This document shows, piece after piece, positions 16,990 to 58,053 of a stretch of 64,000 nt of DNA. Positions within the stretch are counted from its first letter, which is position 1. Each line of letters starts with the position of its first letter. The position numbers and the translations under genes were made by a program. Source of the stretch: an uncultured Acidobacteriota bacterium (lineage in GTDB: Bacteria > Acidobacteriota > Vicinamibacteria > Vicinamibacterales > UBA2999); contig CAVYZT010000015.1 in assembly GCA_963773045.1 (NCBI GenBank), positions 8,444 to 72,443 of the forward strand, in the 5' to 3' direction. The notes beneath the pieces are model-generated. The model did not search any database and was not told the DNA's origin. It saw nothing but the letters and a program-made list of their open reading frames with translations.

Positions 16990-17943
16990 CTACTGCGACC
17001 GCGCCGCGTAGTAGCCAGGGCGTGTCCGCACCACAACGTCAGGTCGACTGACTCGTACCGCAATCTGACGGAAGTTGCCATCCGTGACGGCGTTGGTCGA
17101 CTCGTAGGCCAAGGAATACTGGTACGCGAGCTCGGCCTTGATCTCGCTGTAGACCGCCGCGAGGTCTTTAGGTTCCTGTGGGAAGAACGCTCGTCCGCCA
17201 GTCTGTTGCGCGAGGCGCTTGAGGACGAAGTCCCCGTCCTGGTTGCCCATCCTGCGTGCGATCGGCTCTCGCACTCCCAGGCCAATCGTGTAGATCACGG
17301 TGTCCGACCGCGCTGCGAGATCAAGCACATCGTCGAAGCTCACCACACTGGACGTATCGTCCCCGTCCGACAAGACAATCATGGCCAAACGGCGAGGACT
17401 CCGTTGTTCGTCGCGCGGTCTCTTCTTCAGCTCTTTCAGCGTGATATAGACCGCGTTAAAAAGCGCAGTGGCGCCGCCCGCGTTCGTTTGGCGAATTGCC
17501 GTTTCCAGCGCGGCGCGCTCATTCGTCAGATCCTGAAGTGTCCGAACCGTGCTATCGAAATCGACCACCGTTGCCATATCCAGCGGCCTGAGTTGCTGCA
17601 CAAAGCCGACGGCCGCCTCTTGTGCGACGGTCATTGCACGCTCCATGCTCGCGCTCGTATCGATGAGCAGCGCCATGGTCATCGGCACATCAGTCTTGCC
17701 AAAGAACGTCAGATTCTGACGGACGCCGTTTTCAAGGACCATGAAGTCGTCGCGCCCGAGGTCGGCGACGTACCGTAAATCCTTGTCGGTGACCGTCACG
17801 TTCACCGAGACAAGGTCGACGCCAACCCGGAACGCGGGACGTTGTCCCCGAGCGAACACTCGACCGTGCTCGCTCCTGCCGACGAGCGCGGCGATCAGGC
17901 TGACCACGACCACGCACCACCGCTGCCGCATGCTGGCCCTCAC
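16990..17943 (-). CDS. VWA domain protein (TIGR03436-like, Acidobacteria-type)
   Basis: FRVGVDLVSVNVTVTDKDLRYVADLGRDDFMVLENG, then a MIDAS-like DTSASM. GTGA overlap with the upstream kinase stop. Confidence 0.8.
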   Translation of the reverse strand: MRASMRQRWCVVVVSLIAALVGRSEHGRVFARGQRPAFRVGVDLVSVNVTVTDKDLRYVADLGRDDFMVLENGVRQNLTFFGKTDVPMTMALLIDTSASMERAMTVAQEAAVGFVQQLRPLDMATVVDFDSTVRTLQDLTNERAALETAIRQTNAGGATALFNAVYITLKELKKRPRDEQRSPRRLAMIVLSDGDDTSSVVSFDDVLDLAARSDTVIYTIGLGVREPIARRMGNQDGDFVLKRLAQQTGGRAFFPQEPKDLAAVYSEIKAELAYQYSLAYESTNAVTDGNFRQIAVRVSRPDVVVRTRPGYYAARSQ

Positions 17944-25262: not shown

Positions 25263-26066
25263 ATGCTGCGCGTCCCTCGACTGCCGGTCGTGGTCTTCGG
25301 CGTGTTTATCTGGACGATATCGTGCTTCGCCACGGTCTCAATCGGCTTGGCGCAGCAGACGGCGGCGCCCGAGAGCGCCAAGACCTGGCTCGATCACCGT
25401 CAGGCGATGGAGGACTATTTACGAACCGCTGAGGTCGTCAAGATGGAGGACATTGGTCTCGGTGTGACGAGACCGAGACGCGCGTACCTCGCTCCTGGCG
25501 GCCTGTTCGATCGCATGGCGTTCAAGACGATCAGGCCCGGCTACCATCAAGGCTTCTGGGAGAGCTACAAATCGGAGGTCGCGGCCTACGAACTCGACAA
25601 GTTTCTCGGGCTCGACATGATTCCACCGACCGTCGAACGCAAGGTCAAGAACGAAATTGGCGCAGCCGTCATGTGGGTCTCTTCAACCAAGAGTTTCAAG
25701 GACCTGGGCGGACCGCCCACTCCACCTCCTGCGCAGGTCGCGGCGTGGAGCCGGCAGCTCATCCGCGCCAAGATGTTCGACAATCTCATCTGCAACATCG
25801 ATCCAAACCTCGGGAACTGGCTGGTCGATTCGTCCTGGAACCTCGTCTTGATCGATCACACGCGGTCGTTCACGACCAAAAAGGACGTCCCGCACGAGGT
25901 CACTCGCGTCGATCGGGAACTGTGGAATCGGATGAAGGCGCTGAGTGTCGAGACCCTGACCCCGGTAATTGGGACGTGGATTGGTGAGAAAGAAATCCGG
26001 GCCATCATCGAACGCCGAGATCGCCTGCAAGGCCATCATCGACAAACTCGTCACGTCAAAGGGTGA
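25263..26066 (+). CDS. Secreted hypothetical protein with PI3/PI4-kinase-like (atypical kinase) motifs
   Basis: GGAGG RBS and a signal peptide. Contains FDNLICNIDPNLGNWLV (catalytic-loop-like) and LIDHTRSF (DFG-like). Confidence 0.7.
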   Translation: MLRVPRLPVVVFGVFIWTISCFATVSIGLAQQTAAPESAKTWLDHRQAMEDYLRTAEVVKMEDIGLGVTRPRRAYLAPGGLFDRMAFKTIRPGYHQGFWESYKSEVAAYELDKFLGLDMIPPTVERKVKNEIGAAVMWVSSTKSFKDLGGPPTPPPAQVAAWSRQLIRAKMFDNLICNIDPNLGNWLVDSSWNLVLIDHTRSFTTKKDVPHEVTRVDRELWNRMKALSVETLTPVIGTWIGEKEIRAIIERRDRLQGHHRQTRHVKG

Positions 26067-26266
26067 GGCCGCCGTCTTCGTCCAGTAGCGATCGTTATCA
26101 TCGCCTCGACCTTTCGCGCGCGCGGCGGACCGAAGCGTGTCGACGCGTTTTGCTGGCAGTCGCGAGGCGCCGCTTTCCTGCATTCTGCATGGACACGCCT
26201 TGGAACGTCGACGAACAGACCACCGCTTCAATCTACGGTAGTGTCTTCCTCTGGCGTGGTCTTTGC

Positions 26267-27216
26267 GTGCCTAAGCAGCCAGTGCGATTATCGTGGCTGC
26301 CGCCGTTGCTTTTCTGCGTGCTACTGACGGGTTCTCTGGGTGATCCATGCCCAGGAGCCTCGCACCGACGTTCAAGGCGACTGTCGCACTCGTGCCGATG
26401 ACGGCTGTTGTTCGCGATTCACGCAATCGCCTGGTGCAGGATCTTCGGCGCGATGACTTCCAGGTATTCGAGAATGGCCGCCAGCGCGCGATTGTCGACT
26501 TCAACGCGACCGCGCACGGACCGGTGAGCGTGGCTCTTCTCTTCGACACCAGTGGAAGCATGCGCATCGGATCCAACCTGGAGAATGCCAAAGGCGTCGT
26601 GGAGCATCTGCTGAGCTGGCTCGAGCCGTCTCGAGACGAAGTCGGTCGTTATTCACGTTTGACCGTGCGGTTCGCCGAGAGGCCGCATTTACGACCGATC
26701 GCGACCAGATTCGCGGGCACTCCGCGGTCTCGCACCGACGGGCGTCACGTCGCTTTATGACGCAATCGCGGAGACAGCCAAGCAAATCGACGATCGGAGC
26801 ACACGTCGGCGAGCGCTCGTGGTCGTGACCGATGGCGTCGATACGAGCAGCAGGCTGACGGCGCCTGAAGTCTCAGCCGTGGCAAGCGCGATCGACGTGC
26901 CGGTCTATGTGATGGCGGTTGTGTCACCCCTCGATCATCGAGGGAGCGCCACAGCTGTCGTGCCGGATGCGGACGAGGACCGTCCGGTCTCTCGAGTCTG
27001 GCGTATTGGACCGGCGGAAGCCTCAGGTACGTCAGCGCGGCTGCGCATGCCAGCGTGGCCAGTCGGGAATTGATTGCGGAGTTGCGACAGCAGTACTCCT
27101 TGGCGATCGAATCGGCTGTGACGCCGGGCTGGCATCGGCTCGAGGTCAAGACCAAACGCAAGGGGCTCTCAGTGCGTGCCAGGACCGGCTACTTTGCCAG
27201 TGCACTTCGTCGGTGA
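26267..27216 (+). pseudogene. VWA domain protein (TIGR03436-like), at least 3 frameshifts as assembled
   Basis: Signal peptide frame 26267-, FKATVALVPMTAVVRD...DTSGSM (26347..26760), VVTDGVDTSS (26819..27073), and C-terminus ...RLEVKTKRKGLSVRARTGYF in a third frame. Confidence 0.7.
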
Positions 27217-27298
27217 GCCAGTCGCGCACGTCGCGGATTCCCGTTCCACAGCAACGGGTCTCGAAATCACAGATTCCGAGTGCTTGGCGACGAGTCAC

Positions 27299-29288
27299 AT
27301 GCGGCAGTCGGCGGTGACCAACATGGCGCTCTTGGTTCGTGCTCGGCGTCACGTTGCCGGCTGGGCAGGCGCGGAGAGGTGCTGCCACGTTTCCGAGCCG
27401 GCGCCAGCTTGGTTCGCGTCGACGCGTACATTTCGCAGGACGGCGTTCCTGATCACGGATCATTCGGCCCGCCGAGATCGACGTCCTTGAAGATGATCGA
27501 CCGCAGAGGGTCGAGAGCATCGAGCTTTTCGACTGCCGGAAGCAACAGAGCACGCCGGGAACGCGAGCGTTGACACCTCGGACAACGCGCTATTTGTGCT
27601 GTTCTTCGATATTCCGCACATCAAACCGGACCGTTCTACGCGTGCACAAGGCGCAGATGTCCACAGCTGCTCAATAGCGTGACTCGGCCCAAGGATCTCG
27701 TCGGCGTCATGACGCCGGAGATGTCGGCACAGAACATCGGGCCGGCGCCTCGAGCTGACGGCCTCGACCGGATGCTCAGCGACGTGTGGGGATTCAGCAG
27801 AGTCGATGCACTCGAGACGTGTAGACGCGCGTGAACACGAATTGGAGCAATGCTATTCGGAGACGGCGCCAACAACCGGTGCGTCAGGAGGCGCGACAAC
27901 GGCAGGGGTGGCGAAGCAGCTCATCGAACGGCGCCGCGAGCAGAAGACGTTGCGTGCGATCGACGATTTGGTGACGTACTTGAGGGGCTACGCAAGGAGC
28001 GGAAGTTCGTTGTGATTCTCTCGGACGGTTGGGTCCTGTTCAGACGGAGCGAACAGACCGTAACGCCGCCGACGAAAGGGGACGCTCGCCTGACAACAAG
28101 TGCCGGATTCGAGTCATGCGAACGGGAGCGAGTGACGCTGTCGTTGGTCGATGACGCTGTCGAGGCGCGAAAGCTTGCCCAACGCGCGAACCGCGCGAAC
28201 GTCAGCTTCTATCCGATCAGCCCGCGCGGATTCGAGTCTGGTTCGATCGCAGACGACGGCTGACGATCGGAACGCGACGAGTGCACGCCATAACGGGTTG
28301 CGCGAACTCGCCGCGCAGACCGACGGCATTGCGATGCTGGACGCCAACGATGCCGTTGGCGGCGCCGCGCGACTGTCGCGGATGTTGGTTCGCACTACGT
28401 GATCAGCTATTACTCCTCAAACCGCAACTTGGACGGCCGCTTTCGACGAATCGCTGTCCGCGTCAGGCGAGATGGGGTGGAGGTGCGGACGCGGCCGGGC
28501 TACCTCTCGCTGACCGCTGCAGAAGGGCGTACGTACGGTCTCGGTCCTTCAGAGGCCAACGAGCAGTGCGACGTTTCCGCCACCTTCTCCGAGCTTCCGT
28601 CGCTCCTGGGGCGGTTGCGATCTGGCGGCAATCCAGCGGTTCGGGTGCAGGCGTCGGGCGGCTTAGGCGGTGTGATTCAACGCCGTCGTGGAACTCGACG
28701 CCGCTGACGCTCAAAAGCAGGCAGGGTGGCTGACAGGCTGGGATGTTCGGTTGGTCGTTGAACCCGAGAGTGGCGGTCGAGCGTACAGCGTCGATTCGGT
28801 GCTTGAGCCCGGCCAGCGCTTTGCGACCTTGGAGTCCGAGAGCCGGGCTCGCGCCCGGGCGGTATTTGGTTCACGCTGAGCTGAAGGCCACAGAACGCCC
28901 GACAATGCTCCAAGGAAGCACGTCGACCACCGTCCCCGCTGTGACGGCGATGGTCGGCAGCGCGCGATCGTGCGACGCAGAGGGCCAGGAACTGCGATGG
29001 CCTATGAACCGACGGCCGACCCACGGTTTCGGCGCACCGAGCGGCTGCGGATTGAGGTGCCGGTCATGGAAAAGGGAGTCACGTCGAGTGCGCGTGTGTT
29101 GACTCGCCAGGGCCACCCCATGCTTCTGACGGTCGAGACGAGCGAACGGGTCGATGGATCACAGGATTGGGCGGTAGCGGACGTTGGATTGGCGCCGCTC
29201 GCCGCCGGTGACTACATCTTCGAAATGTCATTCGCCGCGAATGGCAGGTCCGAAGTCGTGACTTATCGCATTTCGGTTGGTGCCTTGA
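27299..29288 (+). pseudogene. Long VWA-type protein (TIGR03436-like N-terminus), at least 5 frameshifts as assembled
   Basis: FRAGASLVRVDAYISQDGVP, LVGVMTPEMSA, KFVVILSDGW, ANVSFYPISPRG and YYSSNRNLDGRFRRIAVRV are collinear but in different frames. The start and the end (..IAFRLVP) are inferred. Confidence 0.6.
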
Positions 29289-29332: not shown

Positions 29333-30242
29333 ATGCCGGTAGGGACGGTTCATTTTTCCGCCACTCGCGATCGTCGCGGCATCCTTGAGCGTCGTCGCAT
29401 CGGCACAGGACCAGCCGATCTTCAAGTCGGCCATTCGCACCGTGCCGGTCTACGCGACCGTCGTCGACGGCAGCGGCCGGCTGGTAGCCGAGCTGAGTCG
29501 GTCTGAGTTTTCGGTCACCGACAACGGCAGGCCAGCCGATGTGTCACTGTTCTCGAACGAGTCGCAGCCATTCACGGCCGTCGTCATGCTCGACACGAGC
29601 GCGAGCATGACGGCCAATCTCAAGCTGCTGAACCGCGCTGCCGAGCAATTCCTCCTTCGCCTGTTGCCAGTCGATCGCGCGCAAGTCGGCGCCTTCAACG
29701 ACAAGATTCAATTGAGCGGAACATTCACGAACAATCGTGACGAACTCATTCGAGCGCTCGACGACCTGTTCTTTGGCAATCCCACCCGCCTCTACGACGG
29801 GATTGCCGCTGGCCTTGACGCGCTGCGCGGCGCCGAAGGGCGTCGCGTGATTCTCGTATTCACGGACGGCGACGACACGGCCAGCAAAATCGATTTCAAG
29901 AACGTGCTCGAGCGCGCGCGCGATGAAGAGGTGATGGTGTACGCGATTGGGCTCGAGTCGGAGTACTTCGACGGACAACGCAGTCGTTCAGAACTCGGCC
30001 GTCTCGAGACTTGAGGAAGATCGCGGACGAGACCGGAGGAGGGTACTTCGAGCTCGCAAAGACGGTGGATTTGTCGCCGACCTTCTCGCGCGTCGCACAG
30101 GAATTGCGAAGCCACTACTTGATTGGGTTTGCGCCAGCCACGCTTGACGGTAAGGTGCACAAATTGGAAGTGCGCGTCGTCAAAACCCGGGATGACGGTT
30201 CGGGCGAGAAGGAGCTATCTGGCCGCGCCAGATCGCAGTTGA
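29333..30242 (+). pseudogene. VWA domain protein (TIGR03436-like), at least 3 frameshifts as assembled
   Basis: The signal peptide is restored by removing one T from T5 (29353-29357). The core is 29385..30014 (DTSASM, FTDGDD). The C-terminus [21 protein letters not shown] is restored by removing one A from A4 (30182-30185). Confidence 0.75.
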
Positions 30243-30259
30243 GCGCCGACGTGCTCCTT

Positions 30260-30547
30260 CTCAAGGCCTGTCGCTACCGAGTCTCCTTCTTCCTGGCTGT
30301 CCCCACACTCCTTGCGGCCGGAGCGTATCAGCTCTACAAGGAGCGCGCGTTGCTCTCAGCCGTAGATGCCGGCTGGTTTGGTGTGGGCTTTCTCGCGTCG
30401 TTCGTCTCGGCGTTCTTTTGCGTCCGCTGGCTGCTCCGCTATGTCAGCGCGCATGATCTCAGACCCTTTGCTTGGTATCGAATCGCTTTCGGTCTGGTCG
30501 TGATCGTGACTGCGGATGCCGGAGTCGTAAGTTGGACAGTCAGATAG
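30260..30547 (+). pseudogene. uppP: 3' fragment (last ~95 codons) of undecaprenyl-diphosphate phosphatase
   Basis: [19 protein letters not shown]...[31 protein letters not shown] matches the UppP/BacA C-terminus. There is no N-terminal ~170 aa; the VWA gene abuts it. Confidence 0.55.
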
Positions 30548-39410: not shown

Positions 39411-41768
39411 ATGAAATCTGGCCCTGCGGGGTCGTTTGGCGTGCAACTCAAGACGCTCCGCGAAGCCGCCGGCTTCACGCAGGAGGAGCTCGCCACGATT
39501 GCCGGCCTGTCGGTGCATGCCGTGAGCGCGCTGGAGCGCGGCCATCGACGGCGTCCTCATCTCGAGACCGTGCGCGCACTATCTGCGGCACTTGACCTGC
39601 CTGGTGCGACTCGTGATGCGCTCCTTAGCGCGCGGGCATCTGCTCAGCCTGAGGCCGTCGATGAATTGAGCGCCGTCTCGCTGCCGCTGGCTCTGACGCC
39701 ACTTCTCGGCCGCGCCGTCGAAATGGAGACGCTGCGGCACTGGCTGACCGATCCGGCCGCGCGCCTCATCACGCTGACGGGGCCAGGGGGAGTCGGCAAG
39801 ACCCGTCTCGCACTGGAGATCGCACGAGCGATCGCGGCTGAGGGCACAACCCGTGTGGTGTTCGTACCGTTGGCCGCGATTCGGAATCCTGCGTTTGTCG
39901 CGTCGGCGGTTGCCGAGGCGCTCGGACTGTCGGACGTCAGTGCGCTCGACGTGCCGAAGCGCGCACGCGTCGCGTGCGCCGATCAGCCGACGTTGATGGT
40001 GCTCGACAATTTCGAGCAGGTGTTGGACGCATCGCCGCTGGTGGCGGATCTCCTGACCGCGGTCGCGTCACTGCGGGTGCTGGCCACCAGCCGCGCTCCG
40101 CTGCGCGTGCGAGGCGAGCGCGAGTGCACCATTGGACCGCTCGCGTTGGAGCTGGACCTGGATGCGATGTCGCCCGCGGATCTGGCGCGCTCTCCCGCGG
40201 TGCGACTATTTGTGGAACGGGTTCGAGACGTCGAACCTGGCTTTTGCCTCACATCCGCGAACGCACCCACTGTGACGGCGATTTGTCGGCGCCTCGATGC
40301 CCTGCCGCTTGCCCTCGAGCTTGCGGCCCCGTGGATCAAAGTGCTCACGGCCGAGGACCTGCTCCGCCGACTCACGCACGATGTCCTGCTTTCGACGGCC
40401 GGCCCACGCGATCTCCCCGAGCGCCAACAGACGATCAATGCGACGGTCGCCTGGAGTTATCAACTCCTCGGCCCGAACGAGCAGCTGGCCTTTCGCCGTC
40501 TCGGCGCGTTGCCTGGCCGGTTCCCGATCCAGGCCGCCGCGGCGGTCCTCGCCGGTCGCGAGGGTGCCTCGGTCACGAGCGATGAGGGGCTCCGCGCGGT
40601 GGCCGCCTTGATTGACCGAAGCCTCCTGCTGCGGGCCGAGACGTCGGTGGCCGCGCGTCCGCTGTACCAGATGCTCGAAACGGTGCGCGCCTACGCCGCG
40701 CTCGAGCTCACCGCGTCAGGTGACCGCGACGCGGCCCTGGATGGGCTGGCGCGCTATTGCACCGCTGAAGCCGCCCTCGCGGCGGAGGGGCTGGTGGGAC
40801 CCGCGCAAGCCGAATGGTTGGATCGCGTCCGCGACGATCTCGAAAGTTACCGCAGCGCACTGACCTGGCTGATTGAGCGCAACCGTCCCACCGAAGCGTC
40901 CGGCATCGCGTGGGGGCTGAAGTACTTCTGGCTGATCCGTGGGCATGCGGCCGAAGGCCTCCAGTGGTACGAAGAAATCCTGAATCTGCGTTCTCTTCCT
41001 CCCGCCGCCGAGTTGCGAACCCTCGTGGGAGCCGCTGTGCTGTGGTACACGCAGGGGGAACTCGAGCGCGCACGCACTGGACTGACGCGCGCCCTGGCGC
41101 TGGAACGCGGCGCTGGCGACCTGGATCTGGTCGCGAACGGTGAGTATCTGTTCGGTCACGTCGAACACGCCGCCGGCAACGTGAACGCGGCCCGCGATTG
41201 GTTCGTTCGCAGTGTTGACCAGTTCCGTTCGCTTGCAATCCCGTCGGGCACCGGCAATGCGCTGAGCGGCATGGCCTCACTCGCCCTCGCGACCGGCGAC
41301 GCCGATCAAGCGGAACGCCTGCTCGATGAAGCCACATCGGTGCTTCGACAAGCCGGTCCGTGGTTCCTGACCTGGGCGCTGTATGTTCGCGCGATCCTGG
41401 CGGTGCGGCGCGGGAACCCCGATGAGGCGATCGCCTTGCTGCGGGAGAGCCTCACCCGCATCCGCGAGCTGAATGACAAGTTCGCATTCGTGTATGCGCT
41501 GGTCCCGCTCGCCGCCGCGGCGGTACTGAAAGGTGACGATGTCTGGGCGGCGCGGATCCTCGGCACCCGGGACGCCGTCACCGAACGCACAGGTGTCACG
41601 GTGGTCGACCAATCGGTACAGGACCTCCGGGAACAGGCTGAACGGGAGGCGCGTGCCCGCCTCGGTCCCGACCGGTGGGCCCGGGCGTATGCGGCAGGCC
41701 GTGTCACCTCCATCGATTCGATGATCAAGGACATCGACACCGCTCTGCGAACCCGCTCCCGCGCCTAG
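39411..41768 (+). CDS. HTH(XRE)-STAND NTPase-TPR regulator
   Basis: N-terminal LKTLREAAGFTQEELA HTH, P-loop LTGPGGVGKTRLA, long TPR-like C-terminus. 785 aa, intact. Confidence 0.8.
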   Translation: MKSGPAGSFGVQLKTLREAAGFTQEELATIAGLSVHAVSALERGHRRRPHLETVRALSAALDLPGATRDALLSARASAQPEAVDELSAVSLPLALTPLLGRAVEMETLRHWLTDPAARLITLTGPGGVGKTRLALEIARAIAAEGTTRVVFVPLAAIRNPAFVASAVAEALGLSDVSALDVPKRARVACADQPTLMVLDNFEQVLDASPLVADLLTAVASLRVLATSRAPLRVRGERECTIGPLALELDLDAMSPADLARSPAVRLFVERVRDVEPGFCLTSANAPTVTAICRRLDALPLALELAAPWIKVLTAEDLLRRLTHDVLLSTAGPRDLPERQQTINATVAWSYQLLGPNEQLAFRRLGALPGRFPIQAAAAVLAGREGASVTSDEGLRAVAALIDRSLLLRAETSVAARPLYQMLETVRAYAALELTASGDRDAALDGLARYCTAEAALAAEGLVGPAQAEWLDRVRDDLESYRSALTWLIERNRPTEASGIAWGLKYFWLIRGHAAEGLQWYEEILNLRSLPPAAELRTLVGAAVLWYTQGELERARTGLTRALALERGAGDLDLVANGEYLFGHVEHAAGNVNAARDWFVRSVDQFRSLAIPSGTGNALSGMASLALATGDADQAERLLDEATSVLRQAGPWFLTWALYVRAILAVRRGNPDEAIALLRESLTRIRELNDKFAFVYALVPLAAAAVLKGDDVWAARILGTRDAVTERTGVTVVDQSVQDLREQAEREARARLGPDRWARAYAAGRVTSIDSMIKDIDTALRTRSRA

Positions 41769-42984: not shown

Positions 42985-44136
42985 ATGAGAACACTCTTCC
43001 TTCTGCTCGCCATGACGCTTCTCGCCGCGACGGCGTCTGCCGAGCCGACGTTTCTCGCGAAGCAGTACACGCGCTGCACAGCGTGTCATTACTCGCCCAC
43101 GGGCGGCGGGCTGCTGACTCCTTACGGACGGCTCCTTTCCCAGCGAGAGCTGTCGACATGGGGCCGCGCGACGCCGGCTCCGGAAGCGGGCGCAGAAGAC
43201 GACCCACATGGGGAGCAGGCATTCCTGTACGGGGCGCTGGGAGACGCGCTCGGTCCCGTCCATCTTGGGCTCGAGCTACGTCCGTCCCACTTGCGGATCG
43301 CCTTTCCCGGTGGACATCAAGAGATGAATCTGCAGATGAATCTCGACCTCGTCGGCGCGCTCCAGAAGAACGGATGGACCGCATACGGGACGGTGGGGCG
43401 TGAGCCGCCGAACTCCGCCGTCCGCAACGGCCGCACGCTGTCCGAGCCCGCGTTCATCTCCTACGAGCACTGGATTTCGTACCAGATCGACGAAGGCTTC
43501 CGGATTCGCGCCGGCCGATTCCTGCCCGCGTACGGAGTGCGCTTCGCGGATCACACGACGTACTCGCGCAGTTCCCTCGACCTCGATCGCAACGATCAGG
43601 TCTACGGCCTCGAGGTGGGCGGCACGATAGGCCCTTCGTTGGTCCAGGTGATGGTCAGTCCCGGCAAGGCCGAGACCATCCTGCACAACCGCGATCAGCG
43701 CGGAGTGTCCACCGCCGCCCGCTGGCAATTCGATCTGGCGCCGCGTGCGACCCTTGTCGGCTCGGCCTTCTATCGCCATTCGACCCGTGTCGATCCAGAG
43801 TCGGGCGCGGTGGGTGCCGCCTTCGGGATCGCGCCCGCGTCTCACGTGTCGATCTGGACGGAAGTGAACGCGGACCTGCAGACCGAGGCCGTGGGCGGGC
43901 GCTCGTGGGTGGTGGTCAATGAGACGTCCGTCGAGGTGTACCGCGGGATTTGGCTGAAGTTCTCGCCACAACTTCGGACATCCGGGGAGGAGGCGGGCTC
44001 GTCACGTGTGCGGCTTGGGTTCGCAGCGGATCTGCTGCCGCGCACGCACTGGAACGTGAACCTGGGGTACTACCACGACCGCGCGTTCGACGCCGGCACG
44101 TCGACGCTGCTGGCACAGCTGCACCTGTTCATGTAA
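42985..44136 (+). CDS. Secreted beta-rich (outer-membrane-barrel-like) protein with a single N-terminal CXXCH motif
   Basis: Signal peptide, then YTRCTACHYSPTGGGLLTPYGR, then an alternating beta pattern for the rest. 383 aa. Confidence 0.6.
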   Translation: MRTLFLLLAMTLLAATASAEPTFLAKQYTRCTACHYSPTGGGLLTPYGRLLSQRELSTWGRATPAPEAGAEDDPHGEQAFLYGALGDALGPVHLGLELRPSHLRIAFPGGHQEMNLQMNLDLVGALQKNGWTAYGTVGREPPNSAVRNGRTLSEPAFISYEHWISYQIDEGFRIRAGRFLPAYGVRFADHTTYSRSSLDLDRNDQVYGLEVGGTIGPSLVQVMVSPGKAETILHNRDQRGVSTAARWQFDLAPRATLVGSAFYRHSTRVDPESGAVGAAFGIAPASHVSIWTEVNADLQTEAVGGRSWVVVNETSVEVYRGIWLKFSPQLRTSGEEAGSSRVRLGFAADLLPRTHWNVNLGYYHDRAFDAGTSTLLAQLHLFM

Positions 44137-44149
44137 AGGCGCGAGACGG

Positions 44150-45663
44150 CGGGGAACAGAGTCTTCACGGGGAGGTCGGGGAGATCAGGGAGTCGTTGTT
44201 TGGCAGATTCAGATCCTGACTCTCCGATCTCCTTGATCTCCCTGTGATGCTCTCTGCGGCGGTGTCTGGGTAACAGAGTCTTCACTGGGAGGTCGGGGAG
44301 ATCAGGGAGTCGTTTCTTGGGCAGATTCAAATCCTAACGCCCCGATCTCCTTGATCTCCCTGTGATGCTCTCTGCCGCGGTGTCTGGGTAACAGAGTCTT
44401 CACTGGGAGGTCGGGGAGATCAGGGAGTCGTTCTTGGGCAGATTCAAATCCTAACGCCCCGATCTCCTTGATCTCCCTGTGATGCTCTCTACCGGGGTGC
44501 CTGGGTAACAGAGTCTTCACGGGGAGGTCGGGGAGATCAGGGAGTCGTTGTTTGGCAGATTCAGATCCTGACTCTCCGATCTCCTTGATCTCCCTGTGAT
44601 GCTCTCTGCGGCGGTGTCTGGGTAACAGAGTCTTCACTGGGAGGTCGGGGAGATCAGGGAGTCGTTTCTTGGGCAGATTCAAATCCTAACGCCCCGATCT
44701 CCTTGATCTCCCTGTGATGCTCTCTGCCGCGGTGTCTGGGTAACAGAGTCTTCACTGGGAGGTCGGGGAGATCAGGGAGTCGTTCTTGGGCAGATTCAAA
44801 TCCTAACGCCCCGATCTCCTTGATCTCCCTGTGATGCTCTCTGCCGCGGTGTCTGGGTAACAGAGTCTTCACTGGGAGGTCGGGGAGATCAGGGAGTCGT
44901 TCTTGGGCAGATTCAAATCCTAACTCCCCGATCTCCTTGATCTCCCTGTGATGCTCTCTGCCGCGGTGTCTGGGTAACAGAGTCTTCACTGGGAGGTCGG
45001 GGAGATCAGGGAGTCGTTTTTTGGGCAGATTCAAATCCTAACTCCCCGATCTCCTTGATCTCCCTGTGATGCTCTCTGCCGCGGTGTCTGGGTAACAGAG
45101 TCTTCACTGGGAGGTCGGGGAGATGAGGGAGTCGTTGTTTGGGCAGATTCAAATCCTAACTCCCCGATCTCCTTGATCTCCCTGTGATGCTCTCTGCCGC
45201 GGTGTCTGGGTAACAGAGCTTCACTGGGAGGTCGGGGAGATCGGGAGTCGTTTTTGGGCAGATTCAAATCCTAACTCCCCGATCTCTTGATCTCCCTGTG
45301 ATGCTCTCTGCCGCGGTGTCTGGGTAACAGAGTCTTCACTGGGAGGTCGGGGAGATCAGGGAGTCGTTCTTGGGCAGATTCAAATCCTAACTCCCCGATC
45401 TCCTTGATCTCCCTGTGATGCTCTCTGCCGCGGTGTCTGGGTAACAGAGTCTTCACTGGGAGGTCGGGGAGATCAGGGAGTCGTTTTTGGGCAGATTCAA
45501 ATCCTAACCTCCCCGATCCTCCGATTCTGATCTCCCTGTGATGCTCTCTGCCGCGGTGTCTGGGTAACAGAGTCTTCACTGGGAGGTCGGGGAAATCAGG
45601 GAGTCGTTCTTGGGCAGATTCAAATCCTGACTCCCCGATCTCCTTGATCTCCCTGTGATGCTC
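44150..45663. repeat. Tandem array: 12 full and 1 truncated copies of a 117-118 bp unit
   Basis: Unit starts (phase AACAGAG): 44155, 44272, 44390, 44507, 44624, 44742, 44859, 44976, 45094, 45212, 45326, 45443, 45566. No unique spacers. Confidence 0.95.
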
Positions 45664-45760
45664 GGGAGAAGCGCCATTTAACCCGCACGTGGAATATCGC
45701 CGCCCACTTCCAGGTTTGGAGGATGTGTCGCCGGTGTGGCGTCACCAGGAGGAATCGCAC

Positions 45761-46909
45761 ATGAGCGCACCTGCCGCCAGCGGATTGGATGACGTGGTCG
45801 TGGCACATACCGGGCTGAGCCAGATTGATGGTCAGCGCGGGCAACTGGTGATTCGCGGGTATGCCGTCGAAACGCTGGCGGAACGCGCCACCTTCGAGGA
45901 TGTCTGTGCCCTGCTGTGGAACGGCCGTTGGCCGTCGCCTGATCAAAGCGCACTCGTCGGCGCGGGGCTGGCCAGAGCAAGAGCCGAGGCGTTCACGATG
46001 CTGCGATCCCTGGGTGACGCGCTCGCGCCTTCGGACGGCATGGAGGCGCTCCGGGCTGCGATCGGTCATCTCAGTTCCACCAACTCCGCCCGCGATCGCG
46101 TGCGGCTGACCGGTGCGATCCCGGTGTTTGCGGCGGCGTGGGCCCGAAGACGAATCGATTTGCCTCCAGTCCGACCCCAGCCGATGCTGTCACACGCGGC
46201 CGACTGCTTGCAGATGCTGTCCGGCGCCGCGCCGGCGCCCCCGTGTGTGCGGGCGCTCGACGCGTATTTCTGCACGGTCGTCGACGACGGGATGAACGCG
46301 CCAACCTTCACCGCACGCGTCGTCGCCTCGACCGGGTCCGATCTGGTCAGCGCGATCGTGGCCGCCATCGGCGCGCTGAAGGGGCCCCTCCACGGCGGCA
46401 CGTCGGCTCCCGTCCTGGAAATGCTCGACGCCATCGGCGGCGCGCGTCGCGTTCGCGGCTGGCTGGAAACCGAGCTCGAGTCCGGCCGCCGCATCATGGG
46501 CATGGGGCATCGCGTGTACCACGTGCGCGATCCGCGCGCGGCCGCGCTCGAGCGTGCGGCGAGGGTGCTCCAGGAGGCCGGCGTGTCGGCGCCGCGGCTC
46601 TCGCTCGCGCGCACGGTCGAACGCGAGGCCGAGCGGCTCCTGGCCCAGCGCTACCCCCATCGCGATCTGCGCGCGAACGTCGAGTTCTACACCGCCATTC
46701 TGTTGGACAGCGTCGGCATTCCGCGCACCCTGTTCACGCCAATGTTCGCGGCCTCTCGTGTGGTGGGTTGGTGCGCCCACGTGGATGAACAACGCGCGGT
46801 CGGCAGACTGATCAGGCCGGCGTCGGTTTACGTTGGCCCGTCCCTGCTCGATCTCAGTGCGACGCCCGATCGCGACCACCAGGTGTCTGGAATATTCGAG
46901 GGCGCGTGA
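45761..46909 (+). CDS. Citrate synthase family protein (citrate/2-methylcitrate synthase or citryl-CoA lyase-like)
   Basis: AGGAGG RBS. Motifs GLDDVVVAHTGLSQIDG and MGMGHRVYHVRDPRA. Confidence 0.8.
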   Translation: MSAPAASGLDDVVVAHTGLSQIDGQRGQLVIRGYAVETLAERATFEDVCALLWNGRWPSPDQSALVGAGLARARAEAFTMLRSLGDALAPSDGMEALRAAIGHLSSTNSARDRVRLTGAIPVFAAAWARRRIDLPPVRPQPMLSHAADCLQMLSGAAPAPPCVRALDAYFCTVVDDGMNAPTFTARVVASTGSDLVSAIVAAIGALKGPLHGGTSAPVLEMLDAIGGARRVRGWLETELESGRRIMGMGHRVYHVRDPRAAALERAARVLQEAGVSAPRLSLARTVEREAERLLAQRYPHRDLRANVEFYTAILLDSVGIPRTLFTPMFAASRVVGWCAHVDEQRAVGRLIRPASVYVGPSLLDLSATPDRDHQVSGIFEGA

Positions 46910-48318: not shown

Positions 48319-48704
48319 CAGGAACTTGGCTCGTATCGACGGGACGCCCCTGGGGCCTGACGATAGAGCGCTGACGCCTCGTACACCGCACGCCGAAGCC
48401 GGTTGATCCCGCCGAGTGGTCGGTGATCGCTGATGCCGCGCCATGGCGAGAAGGCGAGCGCCTCGCAGAGCGCGCGGCGCTCGCCGGTTTCGAAATCGCC
48501 AGCTGCAGCCTGGTCAGACGGATGATGTTGTCGATCTGGCCGGCTTCTTCAGGCGGCTCGTGTTCGAGTACGGACATCCGAGCGCCCCTTTCGACTCACC
48601 TTCGCAAGCTACTCCTCACCCGAACCGACGCCTCGGTTGTACCAGCGCTGAGCGCCATCTTCGAGACTGGTGTTGCCGACCGTCTTCCGCTAGATTCCCC
48701 TCAC

Positions 48705-50442
48705 ATGCTGAAACTGTTTCGTCTCATCACGCCCTATCGCGGCTACGTCGCGATTGTCCTGGTGCTGGCCCTCGCGCAATCGATCGGCTTTCTGCTGCTG
48801 CCGCGATTGATGTCGGACATCGTCGACAAGGGCATCGTGAAGGGCGATCAGCGCGCGATTCTCGAGATCGGCGGCCTGATGCTGCTGATGTCGATCGTCG
48901 CCACGCTCTGCGCCATCGCCGGGAGCTACTTACTCGTCGAAGGTGGCGACCGGCTTCGGACGGATTCTGCGCGGCGCGATCTTCGCGCGCGTCGAACACT
49001 TTTCGATCCACCAGTTCGACCGCTTCGGCTCGGCGTCGCTGGTGACGCGGACGACCAACGACACGACGCAGGTGCAGCAGATGCTCATCATGCTGCTGAC
49101 CATGGTGATTACCGCGCCGATGATGGCGATCGGCGGCGTGATCCTGGCGCTGTCGCAGGACACGCAGCTGGCGTGGGTGCTCATCGCCGTCATGCCGGTG
49201 ATGGCGCTGGTCTTCGGGCTGATCATGCGCGGCGCGATGCCGTTGTCGCAGGCGATGCAGGCCAAGATCGACCGCCTGAACCTGGTGCTCGGCGAAGGGT
49301 TGAGCGGCGTCCGCGTGATCCGCGCCTTCGATCGCGGCGCGCACCAGCGCGAGCGATTCGATCAGGCGAATCTCGATCTGACGAACACCGCGATCGCGGT
49401 GAACCGCCTGATCGCGTTCCTCATGCCCGCGCTCATCGTGATGCTGAACCTCACGAGCATCGCGATCATCTGGTTCGGCAGCCACCGGATCGACGCAGGG
49501 CACGATGCAGGTGGGCGCGATGATCGCGTCGCTGCAGTACGCGATGCAGATCCTGTTCGCCGTGTTCATGGTCACCGCCATGTTCGTGATGCTGCCGCGC
49601 GCGTCGGCGTCGGCCGCACGCATCAACGAAGTGCTGGACGTGGCGCCGGAGATCGTCGATCCGGCGAGGCCGCGTGCAGCCGCAGCTGGCCGCGCAAACG
49701 CGGTCACGTCGAGTTCCAGAACGTGACCTTTCAGTATCCGGGCGCCGAGGAACCGGCGCTCACCGGCGTGTCGTTCACGGCGCATCCGGGCGAGGTCACC
49801 GCGATCATCGGCGGCACCGGCTCGGGGAAGTCGACGCTCGCGGGACTGATTCCGCGGTTCTACGACGTCAACCAGGGGCGCGTGCTGGTGGACGGCGTCG
49901 ACGTCCGCGAGATGACGCAGGCGGATCTGCGCGCGCGGATCGGCTTCGTCCCGCAGAAGGCGGTGCTCTTCACCGGAACGGTGGCCGCGAACATCCGCTA
50001 CGGCCGCGAGGACGCGTCCGACGAGGAGGTCCGCCACGCGGCGACGGTCGCGCAGGCGATCGAGTTCATCGAGGCGATGCCGGAGACGTTCGCGTCGCCG
50101 ATCTCGCAGGGCGGCATCAATCTCTCGGGCGGACAGAAGCAGCGGCTCGCGATTGCGCGCGCGATCGTGCGGCAGCCGGACGTCTACGTCTTCGACGACA
50201 GCTTCTCGGCGCTGGACTTCGCGACCGACGCGAGGCTGCGCGCCGCGCTCAAGGGCGAAACCGCGAACGCCACCGTCTTCGTCGTCGCCCAGCGCATCAG
50301 CACCGTCATCAACGCCGACCGCATCGTCGTCCTCGACAACGGCCGCGTGGCCGGCATCGGCACGCACGCCGAGCTGCTCGAGAAGAGCGAGATCTACCGC
50401 GAGATTGTGGCGTCGCAGGTCTCGCTCGAGGAGGTCGCATGA
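48705..50442 (+). pseudogene. ABC transporter permease/ATPase (MsbA-like half transporter), at least 3 frameshifts as assembled
   Basis: The TMD is split between frames 48423.., 48943.. and 49505... The NBD is intact (GGTGSGKST, LSGGQKQRLAIARA, VFDDSFSALD). Confidence 0.8.
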
Positions 50443-52363
50443 GCGACCCACGGCCCAGGGCCCACGGCCGCGCCGGCGCAGCCGCACCGCGCCGCCGCCG
50501 CGGACATGTTCGGCCGCCGCCGGCTGATCGGCGGACTCGGCATGCCGACGCAGAAGGCGAAGAACTTCAAGGGCACGCTGGTCCGGCTGCTCGGCTACCT
50601 GCGTCCGCATCGCGCGGGCCTGGTCGTGGTGATCCTGGCCGGGCGCGATCGGCACCGTCTTCAGCGTGCTCGGTCCGAAGATTCTCGGCCTGGCGACGAC
50701 GAAGATCTTCGAAGGGTTCGTCGCGAAGGCGATGCGCGTGCCCGGCGCCGCGATCGATTTCGACTACGTCGGACGCATCCTGCTCGGGCTGATTGGCCTG
50801 TACATCGTCGGCAACGCCTTTCAGTACCTGATGCAGTACCTGATGGCGAACATCGCGCAGAAGACGGTCTACGCGATGCGCCGGGAGGTCGAGGCGAAGT
50901 TCGACCGGTTGCCGTTGAAGTTCTTCGATTCGCGGACCCGCGGGGAAGTGATGAGCCGCGCGGTGAACGATCTGGACAGCATCAGCGGGACGCTGCAGCA
51001 GAATCTGACGCAGCTGCTGACGTCGGCGCTGACGCTGATCGGCGTCATCGTCATGATGCTGACGATCAGCTGGATTCTGACGATCGTCGATCGTCCTCAC
51101 GCTGCCGCTCAGCATCGTCGTGGTCGCGCGCATCGCGAAGCGGTCGCAGCCGTTCTTCATGAAGCAGCAGATGGCGCTCGGCGCGCTGAACGGCCATGTC
51201 GCCGAGATGTACGGCGGCCACACGATCGTCACCGCGTTCGGCCACGAACGGAAGTCGGTGGCGACGTTCGACGACGCTGAACGAGAACTACTACGACGGC
51301 GCGTGGCGCGCGCAGTTCGTGAGCGGCATCATCATGCCGACGATGATGTTCGTCGGCAACCTCGGCTACGTGCTGGTCGCGGTGATCGGCGGCGTGCTCG
51401 TGACCCGCCGATCGATTGCCATCGGCGACGTGCAGGCGTTCATTCAGTACGGCCGTCAGTTCTCGATGCCGATCACGCAGTTGAGCGGCATCGCGAACAC
51501 GATTCAGCTGACGATCGTGTCGGCCGAGCGCGTGTTCGAGTTGCTGGACGAGCCGGAAGAAACGCCGGATGCGCGGGAACGCGACGGTGATTGCCAGCCC
51601 GCGCGGCGCCGTGCAGTTCGACGCGGTGAGCTTCAGGTACAAGGAGGCCGTGCCGCTCATCGACGACATGTCGCTCGACATCGCGCCCGGGCAGATGATC
51701 GCGATCGTCGGCCCGACCGGTGCCGGCAAGACGACGCTCGTGAACCTGCTGATGCGCTTCTACGACGTCGACAGCGGCGCGATTCGCGTGGACGGCGTGG
51801 ACATCCGCGAGCTGAAGCGCGGCGCGCTGCGGCGCATGTTCGGCATGGTGCTCCAGGACACGTGGCTGTTCTCCGGCACGATTCGCGAGAACATCGCCTA
51901 CGGGCGCGAGAACGCGAGTGACGACGCCGATCGTGAAGGCGGCGAAGGCGGCGCAGGCGGACCATTTCATCCGGACGCTGCCCGAGAACTACAGACACGC
52001 CAATCAACGAGGAGGCGAGCAACCTGTCGCGAGGGGCAGAAACAGCTGCTGACGATTGCGCGCGCGTTCCTCGCCGATCCGGCGATCCTGATTCTCGACG
52101 AGGCCACGAGCAGCGTGGACACGCGCACCGAAGTGCTGATTCAGCGCGCCATGGGCGAGCTGATGCGCGGCCGGACGACGTTCGTCATCGCGCACCGGCT
52201 GTCGACGATTCGCAACGCGGACGTGATTCTGATGATGGAACACGGCCGGATCGTCGAGAAGGGCACGCATCACGAGCTGCTCGCGGCCAAGGGCCGCTAC
52301 GCCGAGCTGTATCAGAGTCAGTTCGCCGGGCGGGCCGCTCAGTCCGTCTCCCTCGTGTCGTAG
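50439..52363 (+). pseudogene. ABC transporter permease/ATPase (partner half transporter), at least 6 frameshifts as assembled
   Basis: ATGA overlap with the upstream gene. Collinear pieces in 50506.., 50666.., 51120.., 51196.. and 51569... Motifs GPTGAGKTT, QGQKQLLTIARA and ILDEATSSVD are present. Confidence 0.8.
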
Positions 52364-55572: not shown

Positions 55573-58053
55573 GTGGCTGCGCTCTGGAGCGACGTGCGAT
55601 ACGCCGTCAGGACCTGGCTGAAGTCGCCTGCCTTCGCGTTGACGGCCGTTGCCACCATCACGTGCGGCGTCGGAGCGATGACGGCGGTCTTCGCCCTCGT
55701 CAACGCCGTCCTCCTGAGACCACTACCGTATCCCGACGCTGAACGCGTGATCGTTTTGCTCAATGCGTCGCGGGGACAGGCATCGCGGAGTCCCCTGGTC
55801 TCAGCGCCACGCGTGCGGGCGTGGCGGGAACACGCTCAGGGCATTGGCGAGGTGGCCGTCTACTCGCTTGGCCCGGCGGTGAACGTCGCTGTCGCCGGTA
55901 CACCGCGTCACGTCATCGCCGGACACGTCACGGCAAGCTTCTTTTCGCTCTTCGGCGCTCGCCTGGCCCGGGGCCGTGCCTTCAGCGCTGATGAGGATCG
56001 GCCAGGACAATCTCGCGTCGCCGTTGTGAGTCACGCCTTGTGGCAGAGCCAGTTTCGCGGCGACGATGCCATCGTCGGTCAATCGATCTCCGTCAACGGG
56101 GAACCCGCAACGGTGGTGGGCGTGCTCGACGATCGATTCGATGCTCGCTCCCTGGCGCCGGATGTCGTGACACCGCCGGAGATCTGGCTGCCCCTACAGC
56201 TCGAACCCGAGACCAGAAACGACGCGAACAACCTGTTGGCGGCGGCTCGCCTGAATGCTGGTGTGTCCCTCGAGGTGGCGCGGCAACAGGCGCGCGCGGC
56301 GGCGGATGGCTTTCGCGCGGCCTTTCCTGGTGAGTTGCCATCTGAGGCCAGCTTCACTGTTGCGCCGCTCGAATCCATCGTGGTTGGCGACGTGCGCCAA
56401 TCGCTGTTGATGCTGCTCGCCGCTGTCGGCCTCGTCGCCCTTCTGGTCTCAGCGAATACGGCGAACCTCTTTCTCGCTCGCGCGTCGGCGCGCCGGAGGG
56501 AATTTGCCGTTCGGCTCGCCTTTGGAGCCACTCGCGCGCGTCTCGTCCGGCAACTGTTGACCGAAAGCCTCATGTTGTCGGCGATCGGCGGCCTGGTGGG
56601 CGCCGCGTTGGGAATACTCGCAGTCCGGCTCCTTCTCCAACTCGAAGTGGTCCAGATTCCTCGCGTCGGTTCGGTTGGGGTAGCCGACGCAGTCGACCTC
56701 CGTGTGCTGATGTTCGTCACGACGACCGTGGTTGCCGTTGGCGTGGCATTCGGACTCGCCCCAGCGGCAAGCGCGGCTCGCATCGATGCGAATGTCGAAC
56801 GCGATCTGAGGCGCGGCCCGCGCGGCGGCGCCAGAGGTGGCCAGCGGCGCGCGCAGGCGTTCCTCCTCGTTGGGGAAGTGGCAGTGGCGTGCGTGCTGGC
56901 CATCGGTGCCTCTCTCCTGATGCGGAGCCTTGCGCGCCTCCAGCGTGTCGACCCCGGATTCGAGCGCCGCGGCGTGTTGACGATGCAAACGGCATCCGGT
57001 GACCGCCGCATGGCTTCGTCGGCAGAAGCGATTCGTGTATTTCGGAACGGCCTGCGGCGTCTGACCGAACTGCCCGGCGTCGAATCGGCGGCTGTATCGC
57101 TGACGGGCGTCCCGCTGGCACAGGGCGGTGCTCTCCGGGTCGACGTGGTCGGCCGCCAGATGGATCGGCAGTACGTCGCCAATTGGGATCTGATCTCGCC
57201 GCAGTATTTCGACGTGTTCGGGATCCGCTTGATTCGCGGCCGCCTGCTCGACGATCGCGATGAGCGCGGAATGGCGCCGGTCGCGATCATCAACGAGGCC
57301 ATGGCGCAACTGTGGTGGCCCGACCAGGATCCGCTCGGCCAGCGAATTCTGATCGGAAAGGGCGGGGGACCCGCGTTCGAGGAGAGCGTCCCGCGGGAAA
57401 TCGTCGGCGTGGTTGCCAGCGTGCGGCAGTTCGGTCTCGACCGGGCCGCACGCCCTGGCGTCTACGTGCCGATCGCCCAGATGGCCGATGCGCAGATGCC
57501 GTTCATCAATCGTCTCAGTGCGCCGGCGACATGGGCGGTGCGGACCTCGCTCGACGCCTCTGCGATGGCGACCACCGTCGAGCGCGAACTGCTGAACATC
57601 ACCGCCTTGCCGGCGGCCGAGGTCCGCACGATGGACGACGTGTTCGCCGCCGCGACCGCCCCGATGGCGCAGAACGCGTGGCTGATGTCCGCGTTTGGCG
57701 GGCTCGCACTGCTGATTGCCGTCCTGGGCGTTCACGCCGTCGCGTCGTATTCGGTGCAGCAGCGAACGCACGAGCTGGGTGTGCGGCGCGCGCTCGGTGC
57801 GCAGGCGTCACAGATGCGCGGCATGGTCGTGTGGGAGAGCCTCCGGGTCGTACTCGCCGGCACGATCGTGGGGATGGCCGCAGCCGTCGGGCTCGCGAGA
57901 CTGCTGACGACGTTGCTGTTTGGAGTTGCGGCTTACGACTGGCTCGCTTTTACCGTTGTTCCTGTCACGCTGGTGGCCTCGGCGCTGGGCGGCGTCTACC
58001 TTCCAGCTCGTCGTGCGTCAACCGTGGATCCGGTCGTCGCGCTTCGCGAGTGA
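55573..58053 (+). CDS. ADOP-family duplicated FtsX/MacB-type permease
   Basis: N-terminus WSDVRYAVRTWLKSPAFALTAV. Two MacB_PCD plus FtsX modules. 826 aa, intact. GTG start. Confidence 0.85.
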   Translation: MAALWSDVRYAVRTWLKSPAFALTAVATITCGVGAMTAVFALVNAVLLRPLPYPDAERVIVLLNASRGQASRSPLVSAPRVRAWREHAQGIGEVAVYSLGPAVNVAVAGTPRHVIAGHVTASFFSLFGARLARGRAFSADEDRPGQSRVAVVSHALWQSQFRGDDAIVGQSISVNGEPATVVGVLDDRFDARSLAPDVVTPPEIWLPLQLEPETRNDANNLLAAARLNAGVSLEVARQQARAAADGFRAAFPGELPSEASFTVAPLESIVVGDVRQSLLMLLAAVGLVALLVSANTANLFLARASARRREFAVRLAFGATRARLVRQLLTESLMLSAIGGLVGAALGILAVRLLLQLEVVQIPRVGSVGVADAVDLRVLMFVTTTVVAVGVAFGLAPAASAARIDANVERDLRRGPRGGARGGQRRAQAFLLVGEVAVACVLAIGASLLMRSLARLQRVDPGFERRGVLTMQTASGDRRMASSAEAIRVFRNGLRRLTELPGVESAAVSLTGVPLAQGGALRVDVVGRQMDRQYVANWDLISPQYFDVFGIRLIRGRLLDDRDERGMAPVAIINEAMAQLWWPDQDPLGQRILIGKGGGPAFEESVPREIVGVVASVRQFGLDRAARPGVYVPIAQMADAQMPFINRLSAPATWAVRTSLDASAMATTVERELLNITALPAAEVRTMDDVFAAATAPMAQNAWLMSAFGGLALLIAVLGVHAVASYSVQQRTHELGVRRALGAQASQMRGMVVWESLRVVLAGTIVGMAAAVGLARLLTTLLFGVAAYDWLAFTVVPVTLVASALGGVYLPARRASTVDPVVALRE

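Follow-up and report, generated by a model that had tools for sequence, protein, structure and literature searches.

A tandem array of 117-118-bp units fills the spacer between two + strand genes in a 64,000-nucleotide stretch of DNA (the window) from an uncultured Acidobacteriota bacterium of the Vicinamibacterales (contig CAVYZT010000015.1 of assembly GCA_963773045.1, positions 8,444 to 72,443). The question that this locus raises is whether such an array is a new kind of RNA gene, a site at which the chromosome is handled, or a repeat. The original prediction, made from the sequence alone, could not assign it to any known element. Our analysis indicates that the array is probably a tandemly amplified, non-coding, hairpin-forming DNA repeat of a dispersed extragenic-palindrome family, that it is young and variable in copy number, and that any effect on messenger RNA is incidental. 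The character of the repeat is most likely selfish or neutral, rather than that of a new RNA gene or chromosome-handling site. In this way even a striking array can be explained without invoking RNAs or chromosome elements of a new class.

Structure of the array and its unit

Tandem Repeats Finder (TRF) reported a single array in the window, with a period of 117, 12.9 copies, 95% matches, 1% indels and a score of 2712, and it gave higher-order periods of 235 and 352 for the same array. Using AACAGAG as an anchor, we recovered exactly the 13 head-to-tail copies described before, with starts at 44155, 44272, 44390, 44507, 44624, 44742, 44859, 44976, 45094, 45212, 45326, 45443 and 45566, and spacings of 117, 118, 117, 117, 118, 117, 117, 118, 118, 114, 117 and 123. 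The units abut and have no unique spacers, as had been noted, and a CRISPR array was rejected on this ground. When the 13 copies were aligned, the mean column identity was 91%, and most differences between copies were 1-nt changes in the T-run of the loop. The array also contains a block duplication, in which copies 4-6 (44503..44854) match copies 1-3 (44151..44502) at 348 of 352 positions. The features of the array and of one representative unit are as follows.

44151..45663, + strand: tandem array of head-to-tail 117/118-bp units, 12.9 copies (TRF, alignment, unit starts)
44151..44854, + strand: higher-order duplication of a 352-bp block (TRF period 352, direct comparison)
44855..44971, + strand: representative unit, copy 7, exactly the same as copy 11; one hairpin of ~100 nt and a linker of ~17 nt (RNA and DNA fold)
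44861..44865 and 44956..44960, + strand: outer stem, CAGAG paired with CTCTG (fold, subfamily comparison)
44870..44896, + strand: left 27-nt arm CACTGGGAGGTCGGGGAGATCAGGGAG, a CAC(A/T) foot followed by three 9-bp direct repeats of the GGGAGATCN type (arm extraction, family comparison)
44897..44923, + strand: 27-nt loop TCGTTCTTGGGCAGATTCAAATCCTAA (alignment), related to the loops of dispersed hairpins at a different locus (L117, L088)
44924..44950, + strand: right 27-nt arm CTCCCCGATCTCCTTGATCTCCCTGTG, complementary to the left one in inverted orientation (fold, arm extraction)
44961..44971, + strand: start of the inter-hairpin linker, CCGCGGTGTCTGGGTAA, which continues into the next unit (read from sequence)

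The hairpin core is thus made of two inverted 27-nt arms of the form CAC(A/T)GGGAG(A/G)TC-N-GGGAGATC-N-GGGAG, and the array as a whole holds 26 arms, or ~78 nonamers. The left arm is the portion of the unit that is common to the dispersed family described below. The right arm makes three G-U pairs and one A-C mismatch on the + strand, and the outer stem, which is specific to this unit when compared with other subfamilies, lengthens the hairpin past the family core. Folded as RNA, a unit shifted by 4 nt (44859..44975) had an energy of -58.1 kcal/mol (z = -5.3) for the + strand, compared with -53.0 kcal/mol (z = -5.2) for the - strand; the DNA fold of 44855..44971 gave -25 kcal/mol. In the fold of a multi-unit transcript the arms of neighbouring units can also pair with one another. 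The linker appears to resemble the flank that precedes the array, GCGCGAGACGGCGGGGAA at 44139..44156.

The inverted motif pair and the richness in GATC sites that had been noticed in each unit were both confirmed. With up to 2 mismatches allowed, GGGGAGATCAGGGAG has 25 matches in the window, every one of them within the array, compared with 0.18 in shuffled sequences. The array contains 39 GATC sites, ~3 per unit, when 5.4 would be expected from base composition. GATC is also over-represented 2.6-fold outside 44151..45663, with 544 sites observed and 206 expected by base composition. The unit itself proved to be confined to this place, as had been claimed: nhmmer --max with a hidden Markov model of the unit found no second copy in the remaining ~62 kb, and a fuzzy search allowing up to 4 substitutions found no family arm elsewhere in the window. 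A plasmid database searched with the unit gave no match.

Dispersed relatives of the hairpin

A scan of one representative genome per species with the query GGGGAGATCNGGGAG-N15-45-CCGATCTCC brought up single hairpins that have the wider architecture TCACAGGGAGATCNGGGAGATCNGGGAG - loop - CTCCCNGATCTCCCNGATCTCCCTGTGA. Of these loci, six were in three metagenome-assembled genomes (MAGs) of Acidobacteriota, with four lying on as many contigs of a single MAG, and a seventh was in a MAG of Planctomycetota; the source array was not among the matches to these representative genomes. Matches at L002, L003, L010, L011 and L012 did not have the wider architecture and were set aside as chance or coding look-alikes. 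A scan of metagenomes with the half-site CACAGGGAGATCNNGGAGATC then gave at least 120 contigs, the majority from soil samples, and among the matches listed most were hairpins of this kind with differing flanks. The minority of 21-mer matches that were coding look-alikes fell in collagen-like repeats, sigma-70 region 4 and one phage gene, and three matches on viral contigs (phage gene; collagen-like repeat) were rejected as such. The half-site 21-mer also occurs, with no inverted partner, in a conserved stretch (CGTGTCCGGTGTTGGCACAGGGAGATCCCGGAGATCC...) of aquatic phage or viral contigs (L019, L020, L028, L035, L050, L106, L125), and this stretch appears unrelated to the hairpin family.

From all loci among the matches listed we extracted 60 non-redundant hairpins. 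Their loops are 7-89 nt long (mode 9) and most differ in sequence, while the arms are strongly conserved across the family. The loop of the window unit is recognisably related, by alignment, to those of hairpins beside an unrelated gene in L117 and L088. The dominant subfamily, of ~135 bp, has the form TA-TTCCCGCAGCTCGCTTGAGTCCACCATCGGAATTCACAGGGAGATCTGGGAGATCAAGGAG...CTGTGCATTCTGGATTCAAGTGAACTCCGGTC-TA and frequently abuts the stop codon of a converging gene (L029, L031, L033, L038, L061, L062, L093, L098, L114, L118, L136 and L141 are among its loci). Its copies have at least 19 different flanks, mostly in two soil samples, and this shows directly that it is dispersed. The terminal TA on either side, beside CTAG-like sites, could be a target duplication of the IS630 type. 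By crude calling of open reading frames (ORFs), nearly all family hairpins are intergenic, lying between convergent genes in 10 cases, co-directional genes in 14 and divergent genes in 4, which fits the 3'-end preference known for repetitive extragenic palindromes (REPs). In L001 and L006 they occupy spacers of housekeeping operons (KDPG aldolase/KduI and MeaB/acyl-CoA dehydrogenase). Decayed copies or solo arms also exist, at L041, L055, L069, L074 and L084 among others.

Tandem growth is a habit of the family, as revealed by half-site tandem arrays of 33-40 bp in 3-7 copies in L005, L089 and L108. Several forward half-sites are followed by several reverse ones at L005 2738..3073, L089 2003..2428 and L108 80..268, with a period of 33-40 bp and up to 6.8 copies, and these compound structures could be folded into giant hairpins. 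Compared with the matches listed, the window array, which is built of whole hairpins, is the largest.

Together, these comparisons suggest that the hairpin core of the array belongs to a dispersed family of extragenic palindromes of soil Acidobacteriota, similar to REPs, to REP doublets forming hairpins (REPINs) and to MITEs (miniature inverted-repeat transposable elements). Rather than an element that cannot be assigned, the array is a cluster of this dispersed family, and of the roles proposed for it in the original prediction, the one that held is that of an extragenic palindrome array like those of REPs and of bacterial interspersed mosaic elements (BIMEs). The family appears to be so far undescribed: neither Rfam nor the literature searched contained it (motif strings gave unrelated primer matches only), and no description of the arm motif was found in literature on Acidobacteria with REPs, MITEs or REP-associated tyrosine transposases (RAYTs). 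Its value lies in being a repeat family of abundant soil bacteria, the Vicinamibacterales and other Acidobacteriota, with an unusual arm architecture and a marked tendency to form tandem arrays.

The kinds of known element that appear closest by sequence organization are REP/BIME clusters and REPINs, and MITE/ERIC-like long palindromes are also close. The REPs and BIMEs of Enterobacteria and Pseudomonas, which are GTAG-tagged and mobilised by RAYT/TnpA-REP, are likewise dispersed extragenic hairpins in inverted pairs, frequently sited between co-transcribed or convergent genes. Their large clusters consist of dimers reiterated in tandem together with some flanking DNA (PMC3733652; PMC6006769), and here a hairpin dimer with a 17-nt linker is repeated 12.9 times; with 13 full 117-bp dimers the cluster is a large one. 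REPINs (Bertels & Rainey 2011, PMC3116915) share inverted conserved sequences around a less conserved spacer, a hairpin of ~60-110 nt, and occurrence both as singletons and in tandem clusters. Their arm sequence is unrelated, however, and they are tied to a single-copy RAYT and are usually lineage-specific, whereas the arms of the window family span MAGs of two phyla. MITEs and the ERIC, IRU (127 bp), Correia and NEMIS elements are non-autonomous imperfect palindromes of 60-140 bp, intergenic and often co-transcribed; the inverted arms recall them, as does the TA that bounds the 135-bp subfamily on either side, but in the longer subfamilies of the window family the conserved part is internal rather than terminal. 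The BOX elements of Streptococcus pneumoniae are modular intergenic repeats with stable RNA or DNA secondary structure, in which the tandem copy number of boxB varies. They are unrelated in sequence, and what they amplify is an internal module of 45 bp; here it is the entire hairpin that is multiplied, or, in L005 and L089, the half-site. The class 3 repeats associated with TnpA-Y1 are found in the same two phyla as our family, Acidobacteria and Planctomycetes, as high-copy atypical structures (~600 in Solibacter usitatus; Quentin et al. 2018, PMC6006769). They have a different motif, CnGA-GCCGCGACCGTnAGGGAGCG, and a short, weak hairpin (PMC6006769 Table S1), and were rejected as the identity of the unit on this ground; GGGAGATC and GATCTCCC are absent from two supplementary files of that paper, one of them Table S1.

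Probable history of the locus and its possible mobilisation

The two flanking genes were as originally described, and with the leader of the second gene they define the site that we compared with relatives.

42985..44136, + strand: upstream gene, 383-aa protein, no Pfam or NCBIfam family, conserved in Vicinamibacterales
45664..45760, + strand: unique leader of the citrate synthase gene, ~95% identical to L014 (L014 2333..2931 corresponds to window 45665..46263)
45761..46909, + strand: downstream gene, citrate synthase (PF00285 E = 7e-104; NF009005 363 bits, cut-off 332)

The 383-aa protein, whose homologues carry the taxon names of Vicinamibacterales MAGs only, was used as the probe for orthologous loci. 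In the closest relative with DNA, the soil contig L014 from the Joint Genome Institute (JGI), both flanks have ~95% nucleotide identity and the same 118-bp unit stands at the same place in 3.3 copies, with units of 118, 113 and 118 bp. Between its array and the citrate synthase leader lies a 478-bp segment (L014 1855..2332) with a gene for a 133-aa membrane protein. This segment is bracketed by a GATGAGGAGA direct repeat and has no counterpart in the window at 45663/45664. Orthologues of the small membrane-protein gene (127-133 aa) were found at L015 11211..11594, 38 nt after the 383-aa gene (83% identical), and at L142 4915..5298, near the citrate synthase gene. The small gene thus appears to be ancestral at the locus, and no trace of it was found in the window. 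No array or family element was found at the orthologous loci with an 86%, 84% or 81% identical upstream protein. These comparisons suggest that the element entered the operon spacer recently and that the array is young, with a copy number that varies between strains (at least 3.3 versus ~13). In addition, a 1.6-kb short-read contig that encodes an identical citrate synthase has its start inside the last unit, 127 nt upstream of that gene, which is a typical assembly break at a repeat. Arrays of this hairpin family break short-read assemblies, and as strain-level copy-number markers they could be used in MAG quality control and strain typing.

The filled and empty orthologous sites are consistent with the following course of events. 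A single element would have inserted, in a recent ancestor within the Vicinamibacterales, into the short spacer that separates the 383-aa gene from the small membrane-protein gene, and the element with its ~17-nt linker would then have been reiterated head to tail, much as large REP clusters are dimers reiterated with some flanking DNA (PMC3733652). Amplification may have proceeded by replication slippage or by unequal recombination between units, favoured by hairpin formation; the 352-bp block duplication and the difference in copy number between strains are the part of this history that is shown. In the window strain the array would have grown to ~13 units, and the adjacent small gene went missing, a case in which an array accompanies gene loss inside an operon. 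The array is probably without a dedicated function. Since it has same-strand genes on either side, it is probably transcribed, and each transcribed unit would form an imperfect stem of ~40 bp. In E. coli the RNA stems of REPs and BIMEs act as exonuclease barriers, RNase III sites and polarity insulators (background in PMC6006769), and by analogy the stems here could stand in the way of 3'-5' exonucleases, serve as RNase III cleavage sites or make expression of the upstream genes independent of that of the citrate synthase gene.

Several findings weigh against this reading. The first concern the copy numbers, which are uncertain: the 13 copies of the window are an assembly count, and the 3.3 copies of L014 may reflect a collapsed short-read assembly. 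The second concern the REP system. REPs are imperfect palindromes of 20-40 bp with a GT[AG]G/CGTC tag, whereas the half-site here is three direct 9-bp GGGAGATCN repeats and becomes palindromic only through two inverted arms. No GT[AG]G or CGTC stands at the foot of the hairpin, which reads (T)CAC(A/T)G...CTGTG(A) in the window and in the 60 family hairpins. The unit therefore differs from classical REPs in two features, the foot tag and the half-site palindrome. The third concern mobilisation. Neither PF01797 nor any other transposase was found among the 46 ORFs of the window, a regular-expression search for the HuH-Y1 signature found none in the window and 576 kb of family loci, and all-against-all clustering of 1782 ORFs from the family loci revealed no recurrent neighbour gene, the only clusters being ORFs that read through the repeat itself. 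No clear target-site duplication was seen at the one filled-versus-empty site (L014 versus L015). Furthermore, the family is sparse in the lineage, with one locus in the 64-kb window and none in ~52 kb of relatives. Finally, the orthologous hairpins of two related genomes (L088 1..160 and L046 591..750) have kept their arms at 25/27 and 26/27 identity, but their loops have diverged and differ by an indel of 12 nt; arms conserved to this degree could be maintained rather than neutral.

The novelty of the element had been made to depend on whether the unit was a common dispersed REP or MITE of the lineage accompanied by RAYT genes. Its core is indeed a common dispersed repeat of the lineage, and no RAYT was found in the 64-kb window or the family loci. 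RAYTs are single-copy genes, and 64 kb cannot exclude one in the source genome. The DNA between the paired hairpins of L001 and L006 holds ordinary metabolic genes and no transposase, and no parent insertion sequence with matching terminal repeats was seen among the neighbours of the family loci. The family is a starting point toward a new pairing of repeat and transposase in Acidobacteriota, and the main question it poses concerns the enzyme or protein by which the (GGGAGATCN)x3 arms are recognised.

Other explanations and the genomic neighbourhood

One answer to that question would give the array a function. The arms of three GGGAGATCN repeats could be sites of a sequence-specific DNA-binding protein, such as a mobilising nuclease, a nucleoid-associated protein or a regulator, and the array a high-capacity binding or insulator site. 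The strong conservation of arms but not of most loops, seen again between L088 and L046, would be expected of such sites, as would the presence of the same arms in MAGs assigned to two phyla, and the N positions vary freely, as they would if a motif spaced by 9 bp were read rather than a helix. However, arm conservation is equally expected of young copies of a mobile element. The many decayed or solo arms (L041, L055, L069, L074, L084) speak against strong selection on each site, near relatives are without the array, and no gene for a Par, Rep, helix-turn-helix (HTH) partner or nuclease is consistently adjacent. We therefore regard a protein-loading platform as distinctly unlikely. The centromere- or iteron-like array of the original prediction found no support in the neighbouring genes, among which (as among the 46 window ORFs) there is no Par or Rep gene; recognition of the arms by some protein is possible. 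A bolder proposal is that a dedicated protein, either a mobilising nuclease other than a RAYT or a nucleoid or regulatory factor reading the 9-bp-spaced motif, maintains the inverted (GGGAGATCN)x3 arms in Acidobacteriota and Planctomycetota as an undescribed repeat system, with the 13-unit array (~78 nonamers) as a functional high-capacity binding or insulator site inside the operon whose copy number tunes neighbour expression. This we consider unlikely.

The tandem arrangement or the copy number might instead have come from mis-assembled repeat reads. Many gene fragments in the window look frameshifted, which would suit an indel-rich assembly, several differences between copies are 1-nt homopolymer indels, and the independent short-read contig breaks within the last unit. 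The independent JGI assembly (L014), however, reads through the site and has at least 3.3 tandem units there, bounded by the same flanks, and the structured substitutions and clean 352-bp block are unlike the noise of collapse or expansion. An artefact is accordingly improbable; the existence of the array is secure, and the exact number of 13 alone is in doubt. Given the frameshift-like fragments, some of the 1-nt differences between copies may also be sequencing or assembly errors.

The original prediction had also offered an array of structured RNA modules, whether a multi-copy small RNA, a sponge for protein or ribosomes, or, for the citrate synthase gene, a giant 5' leader. The very stable fold of the unit (-58 kcal/mol, z = -5.3) is compatible with this, as are the better fold of the + strand by 5 kcal/mol (three G-U pairs become A-C mismatches on the - strand), the GGGAG/GGAGG blocks of the 5' arm, which resemble Shine-Dalgarno sequences, and the same-strand genes on both sides. 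The family as a whole, however, bore no mark of selection on RNA. Fixed arm positions are Watson-Crick paired in ~90-100% of the 60 hairpins. At the two free N positions such pairing is seen in just 9/60 and 32/60, and there is thus no covariation at the variable sites of the arms. In the 14 hairpins that lie between co-directional genes the sense strand has 15 G-U and 17 A-C, and hence no RNA-level bias; the three + strand G-U pairs of the window unit represent one evolutionary event and carry no statistical weight. The proposed check against Rfam gave zero matches at gathering score in the whole window and 20 family loci, and below threshold (array, E <= 10) only look-alikes of miRNA precursors, as for any long hairpin. 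The GGA/GGGAG motifs are buried in stems, and no sigma-70-type promoter or intrinsic terminator consensus was predicted in the 42-47 kb region. Relatives at 81-86% identity lack the array, and between strains whose flanks are ~95% identical its copy number differs by a factor of four. In L014 another gene parts the array from the citrate synthase gene, and it is therefore not the leader of that gene. Nothing points to RNA constraint; the repeat looks like a DNA palindrome rather than an RNA structure, and we hold RNA modules to be very improbable. The array hairpins were also excluded as intrinsic terminators, having no U-tract.

A protein-coding tandem repeat on the - strand (117 bp being 39 codons, with the repeat RLPDLPDLPVKTLLPRHRGREHHREIKEIGALGFESAQE) is effectively refuted: the + strand has no ORF, as had been said, and on the - strand one frame runs open through each 117-bp unit, which an indel-rich assembly could have split from a longer ORF, but that frame breaks at every 118-bp unit (4/12 spacings), the L014 units are 118, 113 and 118 bp, no Pfam family exceeds threshold, and the frame is antisense to the surrounding + strand genes and built on arms that are plainly intergenic elsewhere.

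The array's neighbours encode a cupredoxin-like protein (a weak amicyanin match), YceI, the 383-aa protein, citrate synthase, a BBE oxidase and an ABC exporter; no tRNA or tmRNA was found. Apparent frameshift breaks occur at 48423..52363, 17940..18458, 29385..30547 and 26063..29102, and the broken-looking genes include an MsbA-like ABC exporter in at least three ORFs, an ORF with HATPase_c only, fragments of VWA and BacA, and a series of short + strand ORFs that change frame. These fragments suggest either an indel-rich, probably long-read, assembly or pseudogenes.

Two further observations concern the window at large. An 826-aa protein (55573..58053) has duplicated MacB_PCD and FtsX domains, which we take to be the architecture of the duplicated orphan permease (ADOP) common in Acidobacteria, and this fits the taxonomic assignment. 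Upstream of the gene cluster for the cupredoxin-like protein, YceI and the 383-aa protein lies a 785-aa HTH(XRE)-AAA-TPR regulator (MalT-like; 39411..41768). Its neighbourhood recurs in L013, where the regulator is present as two ORFs, and in L142, neither locus showing the cupredoxin-like gene, and this recurrence suggests a conserved regulated module.

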